IMG/VR virus record: IMGVR_UViG_3300022223_000005 | Coordinates: 1-52,919 of that record | DNA from: a virus | Taxonomy: Duplodnaviria; Caudoviricetes | Strand: one strand, 5' to 3' | Length of the DNA stretch: 52,919 bases | Shown: positions 2,870 to 52,017 of the stretch, in pieces | How the letters are laid out: each line of letters begins with the position of its first letter | Position numbering within the stretch: the first letter of the stretch is position 1 | Translations under genes and position numbers: made by a program | The notes under the pieces: generated by a model | The model's input: the letters and a program-made list of their open reading frames with translations, nothing else | Databases searched by the model: none | What the model was told of the DNA's origin: nothing

Positions 2870-3706
2870 TCATCTTGATCCAGTATAAGTTTTATGTACA
2901 TGATCATGTTTTTTATGATCATTTTTTTTATTTGGTGATTTGATCCAATTTGCGTTCAATCTTTCAAGTCTTGCAAACAAAATTTTTGTTTCAAATTTTA
3001 TTTCTTCAGTAATGCATATAGAATTGAAATTAATCTTGAAAACTTCAAAATTCTCAAAACTTGATTTATTTTTAATTTCAAAAGTTTCAATTCTAGATGG
3101 GCTTTCTTTTTTTAAAAAATCATAAGCCTCTAAATCTTCTTTTAAAAAAACATCTTTTTTACTTGTGTTTTTTTCTTTTGTTTCTTTTTTTAAAAGAATA
3201 TCACTATCACTATCACTAACACTATCACTAACACTATCACTAACACTTACACTTACGGTATGATTCGTATCAGTTCGTATACCATCGTATACGGTCGTAT
3301 CATTTTGCGTACCATCGTATACGGTCGTATCATTTTGCGTACCATCGTATACGGTCGTATCATTTTGCGTACCATCGTATACGGTCGTATCATCTTTTGT
3401 ACCATCGTATACGATTGTATCATCTTGTGTATTTTTTAGTTCGATAGAATTTTTCTTTTCCCATCGTTTTTTTATGTTTTTTCTGTTTTGCTCTTTTTTA
3501 GCCTCCCATTTTTTCAAATCCCTTTTTAATGTTTCCATTATTGAAGGGAATACAAATCTTATTACATCTTCATCGCTTTTAGGGTCAATGTCGTTTACAT
3601 ATTTCAATATGTGTTTTATTAATACACCTGCCTCTGAATCTGTTAAATTGTCAAATGTGCTCATCCAATCGCAATAAGCTGTAAATGATTTTTTTCCTTC
3701 TGCCAT
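2870..3706 (-). CDS. phage replication initiator (DUF6291-like N-terminus)
   Basis: MAEGKKSFTAYCDW..LTDSEAGVLIKHI N-terminus, internal tandem repeats, low-complexity VSDS linker. Confidence 0.7.
   Translation of the reverse strand: MAEGKKSFTAYCDWMSTFDNLTDSEAGVLIKHILKYVNDIDPKSDEDVIRFVFPSIMETLKRDLKKWEAKKEQNRKNIKKRWEKKNSIELKNTQDDTIVYDGTKDDTTVYDGTQNDTTVYDGTQNDTTVYDGTQNDTTVYDGIRTDTNHTVSVSVSDSVSDSVSDSDSDILLKKETKEKNTSKKDVFLKEDLEAYDFLKKESPSRIETFEIKNKSSFENFEVFKINFNSICITEEIKFETKILFARLERLNANWIKSPNKKNDHKKHDHVHKTYTGSR
3281..3430. repeat. five 30-bp tandem repeats, candidate origin iterons
   Basis: ACCATCGTATACGGTCGTATCATTTTGCGT-type units starting at 3281, 3311, 3341, 3371, 3401, each with a CGTATACG palindrome. 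Confidence 0.8.
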
Positions 3707-5264: not shown

Positions 5265-7367
5265 TTAGATTTCTTTGTAAAATCCTTGAAACCTTACCAG
5301 TCCATGGTATTCTGGTGAGCTTATAAGGCCATCACCTTTGCCTCCCAATGTTTCGGCACCACCTTGATCAAGAACTACCTTTGAATCTATCTCACGGGAA
5401 ACCCTAAAGCATATTTGAACTGGAAAATTAACCTTTGCATCACCAGATATTACTTTTACAGATGCTCGTTGTGTTGCTGCTATTACTCTAAATCCTAACG
5501 ATCGCCCTTTTTGAAGTATCATTTTCAAATTTTCTTCCAAAGACTTTTTTCGACCAACCGTTTGAAGTTTCATTTTGGGTTTAGGTGGTCCTAAATCTCC
5601 TTTTTTCTGTGCATAAAAACCAACCTCCACCATTTCTTTTACGTCTAATTCACGCCCCTTTTTTGATGAGTCCAAAGCGTCTGCAAATTCATCGAAAACA
5701 ATAAATGTTTTCTTTGTACGTCCAGTCTTTGTTAGTAATTGCATTTGTTCAACTAGTTTTTCCATCTCAATCTCAATCTTATCAATATCTCTTATAACTC
5801 TTACAATGCCCTGGCACTTGGTGTTAAATTCATTTTTAGGATCAAATATTATTATTTCGTCATAATCTAACAACTTCGCATATTCTATTGTTGAATTTAT
5901 CATAACCGATTTTCCTGATCCAGTGGACCCACATACTAATGCGTGAGCTGTTGCCGGATTTTCAACATCAAAATAAACAACATTATTGAAGTTGTCCATT
6001 CCTATAGGAATTTTACCATCAATCAAATACTTCGGGTCGTAACTCAATACCTTATCGTTTTTCTTTCCACATTCCAAATGAATATACGACTTCCCATCAT
6101 ATACTTTCAATTGTGTGTCTATTCTTATGCTTGAAACGTCTAGCGCGCTTGCAATGTCTAATTTGTATTTAAAGATTTTATTCAAGGTAGTACCTGCTGA
6201 TACACTCAAAAGAAATGCATCACTTGAATAACCCTCGAAAAAGTGTTCAACCTTCACCACCAATCCTAGTGAGCGTAATATATGTTCTATTTTTTCAGTT
6301 TTGTTCATGTCTTTATTTGTTAGATCGTATAAAATAAATTCAGATGCATTTTTTCTGAATGTCTTTATAATTTTGGGGTTAATGGATGCCGTTGATGCAT
6401 CACGTATTTTTTTTAATCTTCTCGAGATGATATCTTTTTTAGATTCATCAACATTGAATTCATCAATTTCTGCAATCATTGTTTTGGACCAAAAAGCATG
6501 CATATGTTCCTTGCTTACAAACGTGTCATTTTCATTCATTAAATACACGTAATCTGGATTCGAAACGGCTTCGATCATGCGTTTTAATGGCTCGTATAAC
6601 ATTGCTTCGTATAACTTTACAGTGTCATTGTCCATTGGCATTTTAAAGCAATTCAATTGAGGTGATCCATCTCTATTTTTTGAATACTTGTTTTCAATAA
6701 ACCAAACCTCATCAGCTATTATGTTCATTTTAGCTTCCAAAACCTTGTAATAAGTTATGGCTTGTTTTCCAATTGACAAAGCCAATTCCTTTTCATCGGA
6801 AAAACAATTTTTTGACTTATGATCAATTATTATCGTTTTTCCTTCTGAAGTTTTTGCTATTAAATCAATTTTAGCATGACAAGGCAATGGAATGTCAACA
6901 CCGTTTATTTGAAGAAACTCATTAAAATAGTCCTCAACCGATATGACTTCAACAATATCATATACAGAAATGTCATTTATAAAGTTTTCTAACAACTTTG
7001 AAACTATTGAAGATGCTTTTATTTGGCATTCTGATATTGTCTTTGTTGTTTTTTGAAGCTTCCAGATATTTGCCTTAACATTGTCAATGTATTCAAATGC
7101 TATTTTCTCCAAGTCAACTAGGTCAAGTGTTAAGTTATCCTTTTTGTTTATAAAATACCTTTCCAAAGCTGCATGATATGCGTTACCCGCAACCGTTGAT
7201 GAACTTGATTTCGATCTTTCATTGTAGATATAGTTCATTTCAAAAGCTTTTTCATTTCTGGCAAAAGACATTACTTTTGAATAACTCCAACTATTTACAA
7301 GAAAGTTAGAATATAGCTCGTCATATTCTGACGAGCTTAAATTTGAATATTCGTGTATGTGTTTCAT
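5265..7367 (-). CDS. PD-(D/E)XK nuclease fused to an FtsK/SpoIIIE ATPase
   Basis: N-terminal SWSYS..GNAYH..KIDLI..IIDHKS; C-terminal HALVCGSTGSGKS, FDEFAD, AATQR, GAETLGGKGDG. Confidence 0.85.
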   Translation of the reverse strand: MKHIHEYSNLSSSEYDELYSNFLVNSWSYSKVMSFARNEKAFEMNYIYNERSKSSSSTVAGNAYHAALERYFINKKDNLTLDLVDLEKIAFEYIDNVKANIWKLQKTTKTISECQIKASSIVSKLLENFINDISVYDIVEVISVEDYFNEFLQINGVDIPLPCHAKIDLIAKTSEGKTIIIDHKSKNCFSDEKELALSIGKQAITYYKVLEAKMNIIADEVWFIENKYSKNRDGSPQLNCFKMPMDNDTVKLYEAMLYEPLKRMIEAVSNPDYVYLMNENDTFVSKEHMHAFWSKTMIAEIDEFNVDESKKDIISRRLKKIRDASTASINPKIIKTFRKNASEFILYDLTNKDMNKTEKIEHILRSLGLVVKVEHFFEGYSSDAFLLSVSAGTTLNKIFKYKLDIASALDVSSIRIDTQLKVYDGKSYIHLECGKKNDKVLSYDPKYLIDGKIPIGMDNFNNVVYFDVENPATAHALVCGSTGSGKSVMINSTIEYAKLLDYDEIIIFDPKNEFNTKCQGIVRVIRDIDKIEIEMEKLVEQMQLLTKTGRTKKTFIVFDEFADALDSSKKGRELDVKEMVEVGFYAQKKGDLGPPKPKMKLQTVGRKKSLEENLKMILQKGRSLGFRVIAATQRASVKVISGDAKVNFPVQICFRVSREIDSKVVLDQGGAETLGGKGDGLISSPEYHGLVRFQGFYKEI

Positions 7368-8047
7368 TATGGTAGGTTTTCAATTTTATCTTTCATAGTC
7401 TTTTTTTTATCTTCAACAGTTTGAGGTTTAACCTCAATTACCTCCAAATCACTTGCATCACCATCCCCAATTTCACACCCTGTTATAGTGTTAAATAGCC
7501 AAGCTCTTGCCTTTCTTGTTGCTTTTCCTATTACCGCATCAGTTCCCATTAATTTGTTAACTTTTATAGGTATATCCATTGACGACTTATTTTTGTTGCC
7601 TCCATCTATTGACCATTGTATGTCCATAACAATTGCTGCACTAGTACTTTCGCTGTTTATCCTTGGAAGATTTGGAACTATGTTGTACCAAAGCCCTTTC
7701 TGCTTTGATAACAGGTGCTTAAATCCTTCTTTTGTTATGTAGCATTGACCCTTTATGATGTTGAATTGATTACCAACAGGCTCAACACCTGTCAATACAG
7801 CTTCAATAAGACAGTTTTTAACAATATCTAAGCTGTAACCTCCATCTTTGTCCCTGTCTGTCTTAAAGCCAAGCTTATTTCCTTGTAAATCCATAATAGG
7901 TTTCATGTAATTGTCGTTTAACAACGTTTTTAATTCACCTACGGCCTGAGCAACCACATAAGCCTTTTTAAATCCGTGTATAGCATCATCACCTATTACA
8001 GATAATACTTGATCGTCTAGTTTCTTAATAATTTGATTTTCTTTCAT
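7367..8047 (-). CDS. putative ssDNA-annealing recombinase (RecT-like)
   Basis: Coupled to the exonuclease gene; CLIEAVLTGVEPVGNQFNII..KATRKARAW. Confidence 0.5.
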   Translation of the reverse strand: MKENQIIKKLDDQVLSVIGDDAIHGFKKAYVVAQAVGELKTLLNDNYMKPIMDLQGNKLGFKTDRDKDGGYSLDIVKNCLIEAVLTGVEPVGNQFNIIKGQCYITKEGFKHLLSKQKGLWYNIVPNLPRINSESTSAAIVMDIQWSIDGGNKNKSSMDIPIKVNKLMGTDAVIGKATRKARAWLFNTITGCEIGDGDASDLEVIEVKPQTVEDKKKTMKDKIENLP

Positions 8048-8080
8048 TGTGTTATTTTTAGTTTTTAAATTTCATTATTA

Positions 8081-8141
8081 TATTAGTATTTTTTATATAT
8101 TTGTAATCTCGAAAAGAGATAACCAATCTTTCGATTTTTTT
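8081..8141 (+). promoter_or_regulatory. promoter and 5' hairpin module of omegaRNA cassette 1
   Basis: TATATTTG (-7 element) at 8096-8103, then hairpin TCGAAAAGAGAT..ATCTTTCGA; 61 nt identical to 46672-46732. Confidence 0.7.
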
Positions 8142-8142
8142 A

Positions 8143-8259
8143 AACATTTTGGTTCGGGCAGAGCCAATGTTCGTTAACGTGGTGCATTAGCACGAGCGTT
8201 GAGCAAGAATCCCCTAGTCTTTAGATGTGGGAGTGTCAATTCTACAGGTATTGTAATCA
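8143..8259 (+). ncRNA. stand-alone TnpB omegaRNA/reRNA copy 1 (guide about TTCTACAGGTATTGTAATCA)
   Basis: 8143-8212 identical to 26327-26396 at the tnpB 3' end; right-end hairpin and GTGTCAA ending at 8239; no IS left end or tnpB nearby. Confidence 0.8.
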
Positions 8260-14743: not shown

Positions 14744-15730
14744 ATGAAAACATACACAGGAAATTTAGTCATAACAAAAGAAAATTATAATAATTTTAAA
14801 GAACTTGTAGAAGTTTCTGGTTCCATCGACGTTAGGGAGAACGCAACACTGACAGCGCCTAAGTTGGAGAAGTCTGGTTACATCTACGTTATGAAGAACG
14901 CAACACTGACAGCGCCTAAGTTGGAGAAGTCTGGTTCCATCGACGTTAGGGAGAACGCAACACTGACAGCGCCTAAGTTGGAGAAGTCTGGTTACATCGA
15001 CGTTAGGGAGAACGCAACACTGACAGCGCCTAAGTTGGAGAAGTCTGGTTACATCTACGTTAGGGAGAACGCAACACTGACAGCGCCTAAGTTGGAGAAG
15101 TCTGGTTACATCTACGTTATGAAGAACGCAACACTGACAGCGCCTAAGTTGGAGAAGTCTGGTTACATCGACGTTAGGGAGAACGCAACACTGACAGCGC
15201 CTAAGTTGGAGAAGTCTGGTTACATCTACGTTATGAAGAACGCAACACTGACAGCGCCTAATTTGGAAATTAAAAGTAACGTTGCCAAGATAAACGACAA
15301 GAAATACAGAGTAATACATAACGATGGAATTGCATTCTTTGTCGAAAGAAGCAGGACAACGAAAGGTATGAATATCCATTATGGTATAATGAGTATCAGT
15401 TGTTCCGAATTAGAAATAACAAGCAAAGAGGCTTTTGTAGTGGATAAGGACGGGTTCAGTGCGCACGCAGAAACCTTGAAGGAGGCCATTGTCGAATTGA
15501 ACTTCAAAATAGTTGCAGAGAAATTAAAGAACGACCCGATACACGAAAACACATTGATTACGGACAACTACTACAGATCTGTAACTGGAGCTTGCAAATT
15601 AGGAATAAAACAATGGAGGGAACAAAACAACATAACCTCTGAGGAAATAACAGCAAAGGAATTGCTTCCAATTCTTGAAAAAACAAAAGCGTACGGACTA
15701 AACAGATTCAAAAAGCTAATTGAATTTTAA
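14744..15730 (+). CDS. 20-aa repeat (beta-solenoid-like) protein
   Basis: About 7.5 copies of SG(S/Y)I(D/Y)V(RE/MK)NATLTAPKLEK; C-terminal YRSVTGACKLG domain. Confidence 0.75.
   Translation: MKTYTGNLVITKENYNNFKELVEVSGSIDVRENATLTAPKLEKSGYIYVMKNATLTAPKLEKSGSIDVRENATLTAPKLEKSGYIDVRENATLTAPKLEKSGYIYVRENATLTAPKLEKSGYIYVMKNATLTAPKLEKSGYIDVRENATLTAPKLEKSGYIYVMKNATLTAPNLEIKSNVAKINDKKYRVIHNDGIAFFVERSRTTKGMNIHYGIMSISCSELEITSKEAFVVDKDGFSAHAETLKEAIVELNFKIVAEKLKNDPIHENTLITDNYYRSVTGACKLGIKQWREQNNITSEEITAKELLPILEKTKAYGLNRFKKLIEF
14814..15266. repeat. 60-bp tandem repeat, about 7.5 units
   Basis: Near-identical units varying at three positions. Confidence 0.9.
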
Positions 15731-15761: not shown

Positions 15762-15798
15762 TTGACACTACCAAAATATTTAGGTGGGGGAGTGTCAA
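15762..15798. mobile_element. 37-bp palindromic IS-end minielement (degenerate RE/RE)
   Basis: TTGACACT-ACCAAAATATTTAGGTGGGGG-AGTGTCAA, right half identical to the IS right end. Confidence 0.75.
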
Positions 15799-24625: not shown

Positions 24626-24691
24626 ATTATAATATTTTTTAAGTAAATACTATTTCTATGTTCAAATTATTGGTGGCTAATTTTATAAAAC

Positions 24692-24729
24692 TTCAGGCAT
24701 CTATGCTAATATACGATTAATTTTAATTT
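24692..24729. repeat. 38-bp direct repeat (copy 1), putative duplicated leftward promoter
   Basis: TTCAGGCATCTATGCTAATATACGATTAATTTTAATTT identical to 27245-27282. Confidence 0.85.
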
Positions 24730-24775
24730 TTGACACTCCCCCACCTAAAGACTTGGGGATAAAAGAATGACACGT

Positions 24776-25186
24776 CTACTTAGGTCTATTTTGTTGTTCA
24801 ATGTACTTTTTAACGACGTCAAGTGTAGCACCTCCAACGCTTCCAGCGAAGTAACTAGGAGACCACAGCGCGCCTTTGTAAAAACTACTTGAAAGACTTG
24901 GATAGTTTTGCTTTAAACGCCTAGAGGTAACACCCTTAATTGCATTTACTAGTTTTGAAACAGATACTTTTGGAGGATAGTCGATCAGTAGGTGTATGTG
25001 GTCACCCTCACCATTGAACTCTTTTAACACGCAATCTTTTTGCTCGCAAATAACTCGTGTTACATCTTCAATGTACTGTAAATGAATAGATTTAAGAACG
25101 TTGCTTCTATATTTTGTGACGAACACTAAGTGTACGTGCATTAAAAAAACGCAATTTCTTCCCTTTCTGATTTGTTTGTTTAACAT
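24776..25186 (-). CDS. tnpA: IS200/IS605 HUH Y1 transposase
   Basis: HLVFVTKYR, DHIHLL (HUH), KGVTSR, LWSPSYF, KYIEQQ catalytic Tyr. Confidence 0.97.
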   Translation of the reverse strand: MLNKQIRKGRNCVFLMHVHLVFVTKYRSNVLKSIHLQYIEDVTRVICEQKDCVLKEFNGEGDHIHLLIDYPPKVSVSKLVNAIKGVTSRRLKQNYPSLSSSFYKGALWSPSYFAGSVGGATLDVVKKYIEQQNRPK

Positions 25187-25189
25187 TAA

Positions 25190-26374
25190 TTGTATAATTT
25201 AGACCCATTAATTAAAAGCGTGAATTTAATAATAAAATCATATAAATACAAGTTAAAGACCAATAATACTCAGTATGAAATACTGAATAATTGGATCAAT
25301 ACTTGTCGTGCGGTGTACAATCTATCTTTGGAAACTAAGATAGAGGCGTACAAAACTAGGCAGGTATCTCTTAGTAAGTATGATTTAATGAAACAACTCC
25401 CTGAATTAAGGAATGAATTTGAATGGATCAAGGACGTTCCATCACAGTCTATGCAAAATGTAGTCGAACGCCTTGATGCTGCTTACAAGAAGTTTTTTAA
25501 AGGAGGCGGTTTTCCTAAATTCTCAAAGAAAGGAGCATACAAATCCATTCTGTTCAAACAAGGTGTAAAATACAGTAAAACACACGTAACATTTCCTAAG
25601 ATTGGCAAAATAAGATTCTTCAATTCTAAAAACATACCAAATGGATCAAAGATAAAAACAGCAATAGTAAGAAAAGAAGTAGATGGATTCTACATTAGTA
25701 TAGTAGTAGAGCAGATTACAGAAAAAAAACATTTCAATCCAAAAAGTGATAACCAAGCTGTAGGAATTGATATGGGTGTAAGTAAGTTCTATTCGCTTTC
25801 TACTGGAGATTCAAAAGAGAACCCAAGGGTATTGAAGTCATTTGAAAAAGAAATGAGAATTGCTCAAAGGTCACTTTCTAGGAAGGTGAAAAAATCAAAC
25901 AACTGGTACAAGCAACTTAAAAAAGTACAAAAGATTCATCTTAAAATAGGTCGTGTTAGAAAAGACTTTAGCCAAAAAGCAAGTACGGAACTAATAAGTA
26001 GTTTTAGCAAAATAGCCGTTGAAGATTTGAAGCTTAAGAATATGACAAAATCATCAAAGGGCGATTCAGAAAACCATGGTAAAATGGTCAAGCAAAAATC
26101 TGGGTTGAACCGTGTGATTTTAGATGTTGGTATAGGTGAGTTCTTTAGACAACTAGACTACAAGTCCAAATGGTACGGAAGGGAGTTTGTAAAGGTAGAC
26201 CCAAAATACACCTCTCAAACTTGCAGTGATTGCTCTCACAAGTCAAAACAAAACAGGAAAACACAATCAAAATTTGAGTGTGTAAACTGTGGTCACAAAG
26301 AAAATGCGGATATAAATGCCGCGAAAAACATTTTGGTTCGGGCAGAGCCAATGTTCGTTAACGTGGTGCATTAG
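25190..26374 (+). CDS. tnpB: RNA-guided endonuclease TnpB
   Basis: RuvC I GIDMG, RuvC II VEDL, zinc finger CSDC..CVNCG, RuvC III NADINAAKNI; all three acidic residues present; the true start may be GTG 25220. Confidence 0.97.
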   Translation: MYNLDPLIKSVNLIIKSYKYKLKTNNTQYEILNNWINTCRAVYNLSLETKIEAYKTRQVSLSKYDLMKQLPELRNEFEWIKDVPSQSMQNVVERLDAAYKKFFKGGGFPKFSKKGAYKSILFKQGVKYSKTHVTFPKIGKIRFFNSKNIPNGSKIKTAIVRKEVDGFYISIVVEQITEKKHFNPKSDNQAVGIDMGVSKFYSLSTGDSKENPRVLKSFEKEMRIAQRSLSRKVKKSNNWYKQLKKVQKIHLKIGRVRKDFSQKASTELISSFSKIAVEDLKLKNMTKSSKGDSENHGKMVKQKSGLNRVILDVGIGEFFRQLDYKSKWYGREFVKVDPKYTSQTCSDCSHKSKQNRKTQSKFECVNCGHKENADINAAKNILVRAEPMFVNVVH

Positions 26375-26443
26375 CACGAGCGTTGAGCAAGAATCCCCCA
26401 GTCTTTAGGTGGGGGAGTGTCAAAAAATTTCTTCAAATTCTAA
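26327..26443 (+). ncRNA. native omegaRNA/reRNA (guide about AAAATTTCTTCAAATTCTAA)
   Basis: Overlaps the tnpB 3' end and right end; stems TTGGTTC/GAGCCAA, TGC/GCA, CCCCC/GGGGG; 5' boundary inferred from the copies. Confidence 0.8.
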
Positions 26444-27208
26444 TACTAATGTAGCTGAAAATATAGAAGCAGCTACATTGTTATTATTAAATACGATTCT
26501 TAATTCGTTTGACTTATCAATTATTATATCTGAAAACAATTCATCATCTTCAAATTCACTTAAAGCACCGTTAACATTTGGTGTTTTTAATCCTATTGTT
26601 TTTCTAGCTATTATTTTTGGATTTAAAACAGTATTCCCAAATGGCGTTTTCCATTCAGATTTGAATACAACTAAATCTATTTCCGGTGAACCTGATGCGT
26701 TTGTCCACCCTCTAAATGTAGCACTTTTTATTTTACACTTAAAACTAACAACCTGTGTAATACCTTGAATAGTGTGATCTGAAAAATCATTGTCAGGTGT
26801 TAAATTCGCGTTATTTGGCGAGTAAGTATAATTATTTAAGTTGGCCGAAATACTAGATAATGATTGCCATATAGTTGATCCTGATGATCCTCCAGAAACT
26901 ACAAAAACAATTCTTTCAGTCCTTTTTGATGGTGAAACGTCAAAAAAAAACGGATAATTCAATTCTTTCAACCTGGTAACTAAATCCAAAGCAGTTGTAA
27001 ATGTTTCTTCTGCTGATGATCCTGTTTCATCAACTACTATAATGTTTGCAAGTGAATCACGTATATTGTCGCTTCCTGTTGGCTCGGTTAACTCAAAATC
27101 ATCCCCATCCATCCTGAAGTGGCCTTTAGACAATATTATGGTTTCACCTGAACTATTTATATGCGCCCAAATGTTAGATATGTTCTTTTTAATTATTTTT
27201 GTTGACAT
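26420..27208 (-). CDS. hypothetical virion-associated protein
   Basis: In the tail region; its TGA stop is supplied by the IS right end. Confidence 0.6.
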   Translation of the reverse strand: MSTKIIKKNISNIWAHINSSGETIILSKGHFRMDGDDFELTEPTGSDNIRDSLANIIVVDETGSSAEETFTTALDLVTRLKELNYPFFFDVSPSKRTERIVFVVSGGSSGSTIWQSLSSISANLNNYTYSPNNANLTPDNDFSDHTIQGITQVVSFKCKIKSATFRGWTNASGSPEIDLVVFKSEWKTPFGNTVLNPKIIARKTIGLKTPNVNGALSEFEDDELFSDIIIDKSNELRIVFNNNNVAASIFSATLVLEFEEIF

Positions 27209-27244
27209 GTTTATATGTGTTCAAATAAGCACAATGCGCAATAA

Positions 27245-27282
27245 TTCAGGCATCTATGCTAATATACGATTAATTTTAATTT
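27245..27282. repeat. 38-bp direct repeat (copy 2)
   Basis: Identical to 24692-24729. Confidence 0.85.
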
Positions 27283-40031: not shown

Positions 40032-40487
40032 CTATTTGTTATTTTTAGGTTTTGGGCCTCTTTTCTTAGGCTTAACATCTTCCACAACCTTTTTAGGTTT
40101 ATTTGGTTCAACTGGATCGATTGGATCGATTGGATCGATTGGATCGATTGGATCGATTGGATTAACTGGATCAACTGCATCGATTGTATTAATAGCTTCA
40201 ACCGGGTCTATTGGCTCAACTTCAACGTTAATTTCAGTTGATTTTTTCAACTCTTCCAATTCGCCTTTAACTTTTAACGGTTCTTCTTGTGATGTGTCCA
40301 ATTGCCCTTTTAAAACAGGGTAATCTTTTACGATTTCATTTATTTCTTGTGACAACTCAGATTCATCAACCTCAATGTCGCCTTTAATAAATGTGCATTT
40401 CAATCCATATCTGGAAATCATCAACCTCATACGAGTATTGATGATTTCCAGTTTATCTTCTCTACCTTCAAAAATTAACTTTCCCAT
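40032..40487 (-). CDS. hypothetical protein with DPI repeats
   Basis: 9-bp GGATCGATT tandem repeat at about 40114-40160; basic KKRGPKPK tail. Confidence 0.6.
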   Translation of the reverse strand: MGKLIFEGREDKLEIINTRMRLMISRYGLKCTFIKGDIEVDESELSQEINEIVKDYPVLKGQLDTSQEEPLKVKGELEELKKSTEINVEVEPIDPVEAINTIDAVDPVNPIDPIDPIDPIDPIDPVEPNKPKKVVEDVKPKKRGPKPKNNK

Positions 40488-45353: not shown

Positions 45354-45390
45354 TTGACACTCCCCCACCTAAAGACTGGGGGAGTGTCAA
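45354..45390. mobile_element. 37-bp palindromic IS-end minielement (RE/RE)
   Basis: TTGACACTCCCCCA-CCTAAAGAC-TGGGGGAGTGTCAA with 14-bp perfect arms. Confidence 0.85.
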
Positions 45391-45430
45391 AGATTTTACG
45401 CACTTGTATATATATTGGAGTTAGCTGCAA

Positions 45431-45799
45431 TTAATTTTTTACGATTTCGCATTCCATAAGTCCGTCATAATTTGCTAACCTTTCGCTTAAAAATCCCCCA
45501 ATACTTTCCCATACATCATCAGTCCATCCCTCTTTCAAAATGGTTCTAAATTCATAGAAAGTATCAAAGTCCGTGTCTTGTATAAAAAAGCATCCAGAAT
45601 TTAGTAATAGTTTGCCTTTTCCGTTTACTTCTAAATCAAAGTACTTGTCTTTAAAGTAAGAGTCACCAAAGTAGGCTACAAAAAAACCATTTTGAACCCT
45701 TGCTATCTTCCAATCAAAGTCATTTTCATCTTGGTACGTATGGCATTCTTGGTATTGTTCCGTATTGGGAAATTTTTCGATGGGCATTGAGTATATCAT
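45431..45799 (-). CDS. hypothetical protein (cassette-like)
   Basis: 122 aa; bounded by GTTAGCTG/CAGCTAAC. Confidence 0.6.
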   Translation of the reverse strand: MIYSMPIEKFPNTEQYQECHTYQDENDFDWKIARVQNGFFVAYFGDSYFKDKYFDLEVNGKGKLLLNSGCFFIQDTDFDTFYEFRTILKEGWTDDVWESIGGFLSERLANYDGLMECEIVKN

Positions 45800-46175: not shown

Positions 46176-46424
46176 TTAGTTTTGTTTGTGAGTTTCGTTC
46201 ATAAAAAATTGTCCTACTTGAGTAATCATATTATCAAGAGTTTTAAATGCTTCATCGTCAGATAATGCAGAAATGTCATTTTGTAAAAGCATTAATAATT
46301 GTCCAAAAGCACCGTAAAAAACTCTTTTAGTTTCAACTCTTTGTACTGTTGGCATTTTGCTTTCATCTAACTTCATTCTTTGTAAATAAAGTTTGTACTG
46401 GTTTTCAATGTTAAATTTGCTCAT
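46176..46424 (-). CDS. hypothetical protein
   Basis: MSKFNIENQY start. Confidence 0.55.
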   Translation of the reverse strand: MSKFNIENQYKLYLQRMKLDESKMPTVQRVETKRVFYGAFGQLLMLLQNDISALSDDEAFKTLDNMITQVGQFFMNETHKQN

Positions 46425-46484
46425 AATTGTAAATATTTGGCGAAGCCATTTGCCCACGCTCTTTTTTGTTTTTAGTTGTATTTA

Positions 46485-46529
46485 TTGACACTCCCCCACC
46501 TAAAGTGAGGGGGTTTTTCGAAGACGGTG
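46485..46529 (-). mobile_element. 45-bp single-hairpin LE/RE hybrid minielement (PATE-like)
   Basis: Minus strand TTAT|CACCGTCTTCGAAAAA-CCCCCTCACTTTAGGTGGGGG-AGTGTCAA. Confidence 0.85.
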
Positions 46530-46671
46530 ATAAGTTCGTTCTGTCTTGTTTTAATTTTTCAATCTTATGTTTTAATTCCATAGTTTTTGCATATTTAAAA
46601 CACAAATCTACAAATTTAAATTTGATTTTTTATTAATTTATAATAATTAAAGTCAAATGCAATCATAATTG

Positions 46672-46732
46672 TATTAGTATTTTTTATATATTTGTAATCT
46701 CGAAAAGAGATAACCAATCTTTCGATTTTTTT
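46672..46732 (+). promoter_or_regulatory. promoter and 5' hairpin module of omegaRNA cassette 2
   Basis: Identical to 8081-8141; TATATTTG at 46687-46694. Confidence 0.7.
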
Positions 46733-46733
46733 T

Positions 46734-46850
46734 AACATTTTGGTTCGGGCAGAGCCAATGTTCGTTAACGTGGTGCATTAGCACGAGCGTTGAGCAAGAA
46801 TCCACTAGTATTTAGATTGTGGAGTGTCAAATATTTGTACAATGATTGAT
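46734..46850 (+). ncRNA. stand-alone TnpB omegaRNA copy 2 (guide about ATATTTGTACAATGATTGAT)
   Basis: 46734-46803 identical to 26327-26396; variant hairpin and GTGTCAA ending at 46830. Confidence 0.8.
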
Positions 46851-47120
46851 AAAAACACACCATTATTAAGACTAAAAAAAATACTAAAAGAAAAAGGTAT
46901 TAAATCAGTGGACTTTGCTAAACAAATCGGAGTCACGGAAAACACTGTATCAAATATCAATAATGGGAAAACGTTGCCGAAAATTCAACTACTTGTCAAA
47001 ATTGCAAATGTGTTAAACGTTGATATTAGGGATTTGTTTAATCCTACAAAGAATGTAACGACTAAGGATTTAATTAATAAAGGTAAAAATATATTTAATC
47101 AACTGGAACAGAAAATATAA
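46842..47120 (+). CDS. XRE-family HTH regulator
   Basis: LRLKKILKEKGIKSVDFAKQIGVT..LVKIANVLNVDIRDLF; ATG at 46842. Confidence 0.85.
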   Translation: MIDKNTPLLRLKKILKEKGIKSVDFAKQIGVTENTVSNINNGKTLPKIQLLVKIANVLNVDIRDLFNPTKNVTTKDLINKGKNIFNQLEQKI

Positions 47121-47257
47121 TCCAAATAAGCGCAAAATATATTAATTTCTTCGTTTTTTGAAGTGGAATTGTTTGGGATGTTTGTTCTACTTTTTTTTCG
47201 ACTTTAGATTTAGAGTGTATTGTTGAAAATAATTAATATAGCTTATTTGGGTTCTTA

Positions 47258-47320: not shown

Positions 47321-47860
47321 TTAGTTTTCAATTCCGTTAAATAGAAAGAAAAGTTTCATAGTTGCTTCAGTATCTCCCATCGCTCTATGCGGATTATTAT
47401 TTACTATTCCAAAATGATTAAGCAATACCGGTAATGAATTGCTAGATGTACCAATATCCATTTTCCTTGCAGATTCTAAAGTGCAATAGTATTGCTGAAA
47501 CACAAAAGGATAATCAAATGATCTTAGAAAATATTCAGTCCATTTTTTATCCATATTCAATACATTGTGACCAATTATACATCGTACATTATTGTCTAAA
47601 AGAATCTTTTGTATATCTCTTGCGGCCATATCTGCTTGTATGCCATTTTTTAATTGACTCATAGATATACCATTTACATTCATAGCTTTAACATTATACA
47701 CGACTGGTTTTCCATTAAAACGCGATATGTACGGCTTTATAAGAGCTTCATATCGTGTAACCTCTTTAAATTCACTATCCAATACTATAACTGCTATTTC
47801 ACACAATGCGTTTGTTTTAACATTAAACCCTCCAGTTTCGACATCTATTACTGCATACAT
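47321..47860 (-). CDS. DEDDh 3'-5' exonuclease (DnaQ-like)
   Basis: VIDVETGG, GHNV..D, HRAMGD; start MYAVID at 47860 (the ORF-track extension runs through the MITE). Confidence 0.9.
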   Translation of the reverse strand: MYAVIDVETGGFNVKTNALCEIAVIVLDSEFKEVTRYEALIKPYISRFNGKPVVYNVKAMNVNGISMSQLKNGIQADMAARDIQKILLDNNVRCIIGHNVLNMDKKWTEYFLRSFDYPFVFQQYYCTLESARKMDIGTSSNSLPVLLNHFGIVNNNPHRAMGDTEATMKLFFLFNGIEN

Positions 47861-47880
47861 ATTTTTTTGTTTTAGTTTAT

Positions 47881-48031
47881 CACCGTCTTCGAAAAACCCC
47901 CTCACTTCAGGAGGGGGATAAAAGAATGACATATTTAGTTTTGGTTCGGGCAGAACCAATGTTCGTTAACGTGGTGCATTAGCACGAGCGTTGGGCAAGA
48001 ATCCCCCAGTCTTTAGGTGGGGGAGTGTCAA
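47881..48031 (+). mobile_element. 151-bp non-autonomous IS200/IS605 derivative (left end plus omegaRNA/right end)
   Basis: TTAT|CACCGTCTTCGAAAAA-CCCCCTCACTTCAGGAGGGGG-ATAAAAGAATGACA joined to the scaffold and right end; ATAAAAGAATGACA is shared with 24759-24772. Confidence 0.88.
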
Positions 48032-49232: not shown

Positions 49233-49422
49233 AATGTTTGTGTGTATGTGTGTGTGCCTACTCTAGTTCATCTTTTCGGCTTTCGATGTTTGATTTATAT
49301 TTTATAGTACGTTATGTCTATGATTTTTGTTTGTTGCTTTCATTGGTGTATTGTTTATTAGTTGTGTGCAATATACAAATTAATAACACATAATCTACTA
49401 TAAATACAAGTTTAATTTGTAT

Positions 49423-51807: not shown

Positions 51808-52017
51808 AGTTCATTGTTTTTGTTTTAATAGATTTTCAGTACTTGCATATATATTGGAGTTACATCCAATTAATTACTTCTCGTATTTGGTGTTTTGTCA
51901 AAGCTTTCATTATCTATTTTTTTGTTGTTAATTTTAATTATTCGTTTTACACCTGATGTGAACTACCCACATTTTGTTCTATATCTTCAAATTGGTTACA
52001 GCAATATTCAGTTTTTT

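Follow-up and report, generated by a model that had tools for sequence, protein, structure and literature searches.

A nine-nucleotide match between an omegaRNA guide and the candidate promoter of its own cassette in a tailed phage, probably a footprint of insertion or recombination

Why should the guide of a putative TnpB omegaRNA gene begin with the same nine nucleotides that stand, next to a TAM-like tetranucleotide, over the candidate promoter of that very gene? The question arises in a whole IMG/VR virus record of 52,919 bp (hereafter the window; estimated to be ~49% complete, 32.6% G+C), whose tailed-phage PHROG matches include terminase, portal, major head protein, tape measure, tail fibres, replication genes and several XRE-type regulators. 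The initial annotation proposed that such a short match may allow binding without cleavage, and so negative autoregulation or repression of host and phage promoters, and named as a simpler alternative an old insertion into the promoter of an HTH gene. Our analysis indicates that the 9-mer match is probably a structural footprint, left in the HTH gene promoter by insertion or recombination, and not a selected target.

The window holds one IS200/IS605 element encoding TnpA and TnpB, which sits in the phage tail-fibre region. The tnpA gene (24776..25186, minus strand) encodes a Y1 HUH transposase (Pfam Y1_Tnp, 4.6e-42), and the product of tnpB (25190..26374, plus strand) carries the OrfB_IS605, zinc-ribbon Cas12f1-like_TNB and N-terminal HTH_OrfB domains (E-values 3.8e-27, 8.9e-25 and 2.9e-10, respectively). 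TnpB aligns with ISDra2 TnpB over residues 16-382 (E 2.3e-43), and its GIDMG, AVEDL and NADINAA motifs fall on GVDVG, GTEHL and DRDENAA with conserved D, E and D columns, which we take to be the RuvC catalytic residues. Residues D187 and D351 as given in PMC13507860 are in line with this identity of the columns. TnpB is intact and looks nuclease-competent. The organization recalls IS608-type members of the family, with divergent Y1 TnpA and TnpB, an omegaRNA lying over the tnpB 3' end, a right end in TCAA, a guide consisting of the DNA that flanks the right end, and a 4-nt left flank (TTAT here) with a corresponding 4-nt guide on the 5' side of the left-end hairpin. Unlike in those elements, an inverted right-end terminus has taken the place of the outer left end in the resident IS: the aberrant end (24730..24760, plus strand) is 97% complementary to 26393-26426 and has no TTAT flank, whereas the family pattern at this place is TTAT|CA...AAAA-hairpin. 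The resident IS is probably not excisable by TnpA.

The omegaRNA scaffold of the IS (26327-26423) extends over the 3' end of tnpB, and the element's right end closes at the TCAA in 26420-26423. A 53-nt core of this scaffold occurs in four copies (8149, 26333, 46740 and 47941), and an HMM of the 97-nt scaffold recovers four full copies in the window plus four relics of the right-end hairpin (45354-45385, 24730-24760, 46485-46518 and 15771-15798). The predicted fold comprises stem A, stem B and the right-end hairpin, followed by AGTGTCAA; no Rfam family matches the scaffold. A protein-guided scan of metagenomes and genomes yielded TnpB relatives with 40-48% identity, ten of which share this RNA layout, with covarying stem A, stem B and right-end hairpin. 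All four scaffolds of the window and those of the ten relatives close in ...GTCAA, and their flanks diverge immediately 3' of it, which places the start of the guide right after TCAA. Two proposals of the initial annotation are thereby borne out, namely the start of the guide after TCAA and, as far as overlap with tnpB and a layout common to ten relatives can indicate, the identity of the repeated RNA as the putative omegaRNA of TnpB. Seven relatives (L029, L030, L031, L040, L011, L016 and L014) carry an extra ~45-nt omegaRNA stem between two GAATC repeats. The window scaffold differs from those of its IS200/IS605 relatives in lacking this GAATC-flanked stem, as though lost through a deletion between the repeats, and the window element differs also in its location in a phage tail-fibre region.

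The tetranucleotide TTAT precedes the canonical left end in both cases present in the window, cassette 3 and the minus-strand relic at 46485-46536; their flanks are unrelated, and both read TTAT|CACCG..., that is, TTAT|CACCGTCTTCGAAAAA-hairpin. Among 13 related loci whose TnpA is 39-58% identical, 11 (10 distinct flanks) read TTAT|C[AC]A...AAAA-hairpin with divergent sequence upstream of TTAT, while the left ends of L038 and L012 depart from this pattern. In the case of IS608, an AAAG 5' of the hairpin foot is described as reading TTAC, the target and left cleavage site (PMC3201880), and the AAAA found here in the same place would fit TTAT by analogy with that rule. ISDge10 TnpB is reported to use TTAT as its TAM (PMC13507860). 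The assignment of TTAT as TAM of the window TnpB, also made in the initial annotation, is well supported by the sequence evidence of the two canonical left ends and the 11 of 13 related loci.

Two of the scaffold copies belong to a duplicated 168-nt unit made of a candidate promoter, 5' hairpins with a U-run and the 97-nt scaffold ending in TCAA. Cassette 2 (46663..46830, plus strand) is followed by guide 2 (46831..46850, plus strand), and cassette 1 (8072..8239, plus strand), which lies antisense between two minus-strand genes, by a guide of its own (8240-8259). The two cassettes are 95% identical and their homology stops exactly at the right-end TCAA; the guide lies outside the duplicated unit, and the cassettes share promoter and scaffold and differ in the guide. 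The unit opens ~24 nt upstream of the -7 box, 25 nt upstream of TTAT are common to both cassettes, and no TTAT adjoins the left boundary of the unit (8072/46663).

The 13-mer TTATATATTTGTA, composed of TTAT and ATATTTGTA, is present only at 8093-8105 and 46684-46696, on the plus strand, and a scan of the window with one mismatch allowed gave no further site. The 9-mer ATATTTGTA has four sites over both strands (8097, 46688 and 46831 on the plus strand, 10368 on the minus strand). In cassette 2, the TAM-like TTAT (46684..46687, plus strand) is followed by the upstream copy of the 9-mer (46688..46696, plus strand), and a second copy (46831-46839) directly abuts ...GAGTGTCAA (46822-46830) and so forms the first nine nucleotides of guide 2. 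These copies constitute a direct repeat whose starts are 143 nt apart, with the cassette body between them. The match between guide and upstream site breaks at base 10, with A at 46697 versus C at 46840. Guide 2 also runs into a gene, its positions 12-14 being the ATG of a Cro/CI-type HTH (XRE) gene 3' of cassette 2 (46842..47120, plus strand; Pfam HTH_3, 2.7e-13), which PHROG assigns to transcriptional regulator or repressor families. The two sites and the 9-nt limit of the match agree with what the initial annotation had described.

The matched site also covers, as that annotation had stated, a Bacteroidota-type -7 box. The octamer TATATTTG (46687..46694 and 8096-8103, plus strand) fits TAnnTTTG, which has been described as the -7 consensus of Bacteroidota (PMC7366714), and marks a candidate promoter for each cassette. 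As criterion for a sigma-A promoter we used TAnnTTTG at -7, a TTTG near -33 being optional; no TTTG stands at the expected ~20-nt spacing from the cassette -7 box, and the sole TTG, 13 nt upstream, is found in cassette 2 only. Transcription from this box is suggested by its sequence. A sigma-70 promoter and terminator scan, uninformative for this type of organism, gave stem A as its sole terminator-like call. The further claim that the motif is a general -7 consensus holds for the TAnnTTTG part and fails for the whole 13-mer, which is rare: in 101 genomes sampled from the phylum of a Parabacteroides MAG it has 38 sites in 23 genomes, and its reversed control 19 sites.

How unusual is the match? 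The raw count of the 13-mer is not significant (0.77 expected; at least two copies in 20 of 100 shuffles), and its two copies count as one event because both lie inside one duplicated unit. When mock guides were started at every window position, 1,715 of 105,820 (1.6%) shared their first 9 nt with some TTAT-adjacent site; the figures were 11/910 (1.2%) for starts after TCAA and 26/1,024 (2.5%) for starts of the form nnTTTG. The longest TTAT-adjacent prefix matches for the nine GAGTGTCAA ends of the window were 5, 5, 6, 7, 9, 6, 7, 5 and 7 nt. A 9-nt match anywhere in the window is only mildly unusual, at ~0.1 over nine ends. Its position, 143 nt upstream, over the -7 box of the same cassette and beside the TAM, is poorly explained by chance.

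It may be argued that the two 9-mers have no shared ancestry, each being the preferred -7 box plus two chance bases, and that the 168-nt unit brought its own promoter and landed at the first T of the HTH gene's TATATTTG box. In agreement, TATATTTG is the commonest -7 type in the window (four of six clean intergenic promoter candidates), a 7-nt TTAT-adjacent prefix matches by chance at three of the nine right-end termini, and, taking the shared boundary T as flank, ...GCAAT joined to ATATTTG itself gives TATATTTG. For such an origin the cassette box must be preceded by TTA and both boxes followed by TA, and the other intergenic TATATTTG boxes, which stand before four further genes, show neither feature (0/4 with TTA before, 0/4 with TA after); promoter consensus does not account for the match either. 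It also requires insertion exactly at T|ATATTTG, where the left flank is CAAT and the family flank TTAT. By a rough estimate the joint probability of these coincidences would be ~1e-4, and we regard independent consensus promoters as an unlikely origin, though one with a real share of plausibility.

We favor instead an insertion or recombination within the promoter of the HTH gene, which may be outlined as follows. The right end of cassette 2 would have been joined to the sequence after TTAT inside the -7 box of that promoter (TTAT|ATATTTGTAcaATG). Guide 2 would be ordinary right-end flank, the rest of the -7 region of the HTH gene split at TTAT|ATATTTG, and the overlap of guide 2 with the HTH start codon, as expected of flanking DNA, speaks in favor of this footprint. 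So do the TTAT directly before the first of the two repeat copies, the position of the guide outside the duplicated unit, and the frequency of TATATTTG among the clean intergenic -7 candidates (4 of 6). The upstream TTAT-ATATTTGTA would be a retained, or paralogous, copy of the HTH promoter, which would now drive the cassette. Loss of the 143-nt cassette body would recreate TTAT with a perfect 20-nt target of guide 2, and a deletion between the repeat starts would also leave the HTH start codon with a TATATTTG box 4 nt upstream. Such a vacant site would be cut by TnpB with omegaRNA 2, following canonical retention and homing logic. A vacant site is the configuration that TnpB has been reported to cut (Meers et al., PMC10055086). 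In this sequence we infer the order of events, the activity of the promoter, and the production and loading of the RNA.

The initial annotation had offered an old insertion at TTAT|ATATTTG as the simpler alternative. This proposal gives the best fit to the repeat geometry, and in its plain form it leaves the duplicated 9-mer and the shared 25 nt unexplained. Insertion of IS200/IS605 elements creates no target duplication. A TnpA-made target-site duplication is thus ruled out as the source of the second 9-mer, and an extra assumption is needed, be it promoter paralogy, a tandem promoter or a recombinational patch. A simple insertion at TTAT accounts neither for the 25-nt stretch shared upstream nor for a left boundary off TTAT, and this weighs against the footprint. 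Possible routes would be a tandem promoter, a recombinational patch between paralogous promoters together with a right junction made by TnpA, or secondary copying of the cassette along with its promoter. Paralogous promoters are plausible here, since the window contains other duplicated upstream modules: a 43-nt direct repeat (24687-24729 / 27240-27282, 95%), between whose copies lie the IS and the ORF 26420-27208, and a 46-nt repeat (45391-45436 / 51830-51875, 85%) upstream of two minus-strand genes. Both copies of the 43-nt repeat stand just upstream of minus-strand tail-region genes and look like paralogous promoter or leader modules. Of the 46-nt repeat, copy 45391-45436 directly adjoins the palindromic right-end relic 45354-45390, and copy 51830-51875 is preceded by TAAT, not TTAT.

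Exact-pattern scans with the cassette 5' segment and scaffold core gave nothing in viral or metagenome contigs, blastn of 46400-47200 matched no GenBank phage, and neither guide 1 nor guide 2 as 20-mers, nor the HTH protein, had a match in the viral contigs; among 5.8 billion proteins, the best match of the HTH protein has 63% identity over 74% of the query. These searches yielded neither a vacant allele nor a cassette-free relative, and hence no ancestral HTH promoter. For cassette 1, L021 and L022 encode homologues of 7367-8047 with 52-59% identity, and in L021 an upstream ORF abuts the homologue with no cassette-sized gap; this ORF is not homologous to the upstream gene of the window, and the arrangement is a weak hint that cassette 1 may have been inserted. 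The exonuclease turned up in a single relative, L027, which has no HTH gene. Contigs of one DNA run comprised only unitigs broken at repeats, none of them cassette-free, and constitute no evidence either way.

A different possibility is that cassettes 1 and 2 are decaying IS fragments devoid of RNA function, so that the match would be meaningless. Their left end is indeed missing and their right-end hairpins are mutated. The cassette-specific 5' segment (46697..46733 in cassette 2, plus strand) forms AT-rich hairpins followed by T8 (MFE -5.1 kcal/mol); within the window such a segment is confined to cassettes 1 and 2, and it shows no relation to tnpB or the canonical left end. This private segment meets the IS-derived scaffold at AACATTTTGG. 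The scaffold of cassette 2 (46734..46830, plus strand) contains stem A (46740-46758), stem B and the right-end hairpin (46802-46822), after which comes AGTGTCAA. With respect to the IS copy, cassette 1 has changed at three scaffold positions and cassette 2 at six, which amounts to seven distinct sites, and all seven fall within the 21-nt right-end hairpin (8211-8231 and 46802-46822) with none in the other 76 nt. Moreover, the changes of cassette 2 at scaffold positions 71 and 87 preserve a base pair, and the refolded stem has a shifted register. Decay would hardly concentrate seven sites in 21 nt and leave 76 nt without changes, keep that base pair, or maintain exact promoter-to-right-end boundaries in both copies; in addition cassette 3, an independent deletion derivative, preserves the same scaffold from TTTTGG onwards. 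We consider it improbable that these cassettes are dead sequence.

The confinement of divergence to the hairpin fits relaxed or reversed selection on recognition by TnpA, with the RNA being kept. The left-end hairpin is missing from cassettes 1 and 2, whose 5' part corresponds to neither left-end type, so they do not show the two hairpins that define a PATE or MITE, and TnpA probably cannot move them. We also considered them as canonical TnpA-mobile MITEs, and rejected this given the missing left-end hairpin and the left boundary off TTAT. Judged from the sequence, mobility of the system seems to be partly lost, with cassettes 1 and 2 apparently kept as guide-RNA genes.

Cassette 3 (47880..48031, plus strand) provides a comparison, as it consists of TTAT followed by a 148-nt PATE-like element with canonical left end, scaffold and right end. 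Recognition by TnpA would still be needed for cassette 3. Its right-end hairpin is unchanged with respect to the IS, and its scaffold differences, at positions 21 and 60, lie only outside the hairpin. The scaffold opens at the TTTTGG of stem A, 4 nt inside the junction of cassettes 1 and 2, and scaffold positions 1-4 precede the deletion junction. Because its left end is canonical and both subterminal ends are present, cassette 3 is PATE-like, unlike cassettes 1 and 2. PATE-like protein-less derivatives of IS200/IS605 elements are reported to encode omegaRNAs that are used in trans (Meers et al., PMC10055086). Cassette 3 is exactly of this kind, and every cassette of the window would rely on a TnpB encoded elsewhere; cassettes 1 and 2 differ from PATEs in the lack of a left-end hairpin, the promoter-like -7 box, the private 5' segment and the remodelled right-end hairpin. 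At 47860-47932 (minus strand), 20 nt separate the left end of cassette 3 from the likely start (MYAVIDVE...) of the exonuclease gene downstream, whose open frame this left end lengthens by 24 codons. Three other remnants were observed: a mini relic in which the outer half of a left end is joined to a right-end terminus (46485..46536, minus strand, with TTAT before it on its own strand), and two palindromic right-end relics (45354..45390 and 15762..15798). These palindromes of 37-52 nt are intergenic, at gene ends, and could serve as hairpin terminators.

The pattern of change described above, 7/7 sites in the hairpin and 0 in 76 nt, suggests that the cassettes have been kept as working RNA genes, and for this reason a function of the match deserves consideration next to the footprint. 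TnpB with omegaRNA 2 might bind TTAT-ATATTTGTA over the -7 boxes of both cassettes; a 9-bp R-loop would be too short to cut and would damp transcription of the omegaRNAs and, via read-through, that of the HTH gene. Strand, TAM and register are correct for this, the -7 box is covered in both cassettes, TnpB is intact, and the scaffold outside the right-end hairpin is unchanged. Published precedents can be cited by analogy. ISDra2 TnpB is reported to need ~12 bp of TAM-proximal pairing to cut (PMC10097598), so that a 9-bp site would escape cleavage; ISDge10 TnpB, whose TAM is TTAT, is described as engaging DNA without cleavage on a 10-nt guide (PMC13507860); and oppF-associated TldRs are reported to use 9-11-nt guides at promoter elements, with a seed of ~6 nt by ChIP-seq (bioRxiv 10.1101/2023.11.30.569447). 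Several features speak against it. The 9-bp hybrid is AT-rich, with one G:C pair in nine, and the activity of ISDge10 TnpB is reported to have risen with the GC content of the target (PMC13507860). The precedents involve truncated guides, or nuclease-dead proteins with conserved guides, while here D-E-D is kept; guide 2 is flanking DNA over a start codon, outside the conserved unit, and scans of viral and metagenome contigs found no relatives to show conservation of the guide. Broad repression of host promoters, as the initial annotation had envisaged, is unlikely because the 13-mer is rare in the genomes sampled. Altogether, regulation by the seed appears doubtful to us.

TldRs were found in phages. 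The window resembles the reported TldR systems (bioRxiv 10.1101/2023.11.30.569447) in a TAM plus ~9 nt over what are here candidate promoter elements, in the phage or prophage setting and in a guide-RNA gene that seems immobilised; it differs in that TnpB keeps its RuvC D-E-D, the guide, which differs between cassettes 1 and 2, seems neither conserved nor dedicated, and the target would be the cassette's own promoter, not a host gene. Membership of TnpB among the TldRs was rejected, as the catalytic triad D-E-D is present in a protein that would have to be nuclease-dead. ISDge10 TnpB, as described (PMC13507860), is alike in its TTAT TAM and in being a nuclease-competent protein that binds without cutting at ~10-nt pairing. 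Those experiments employed engineered truncated guides in human cells, unlike the full-length guide with mismatches from position 10 found here, and the target of the window is much more AT-rich.

A joint reading would combine several of these elements: an immobilised, nuclease-competent TnpB, two promoter-driven omegaRNA genes, and one RNA feeding back through its 9-nt match, its targets being the -7 box of both omegaRNA promoters and the Cro/CI-like gene behind cassette 2. We hold such feedback to have little likelihood as a whole. If true, it would constitute a natural dual-mode TnpB that cuts vacant alleles and represses seed-matched promoters, an intermediate towards TldR-type regulators. 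Likewise, if the seed match regulates, a nuclease-active TnpB would double as a natural repressor, which in the cited literature has so far only been engineered. If the match is a footprint, as we favor, the locus would provide a tidy natural case of the vacant-site logic of TnpB in a phage, and no new biology would be needed. Independently of this, cassettes 1 and 2, with a candidate promoter, no left end and a remodelled hairpin, beside an IS with a disabled left end, are what may be expected of an early domestication of TnpB and omegaRNA. It is these promoter-bearing cassettes without left end, and the restriction of their divergence to the hairpin, that most merit further study.

Two further observations concern other parts of the window. 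A DUF805b RNA motif of Rfam (49255-49289, minus strand; 38.6 bits against a gathering threshold of 35.6) lies just upstream of the minus-strand large terminase gene. Tandem repeats are found in or near ORFs at 14759-15381 (8x 57-nt), 3199-3461 (12-nt and 30-nt units) and 40094-40228 (~10x 9-nt).
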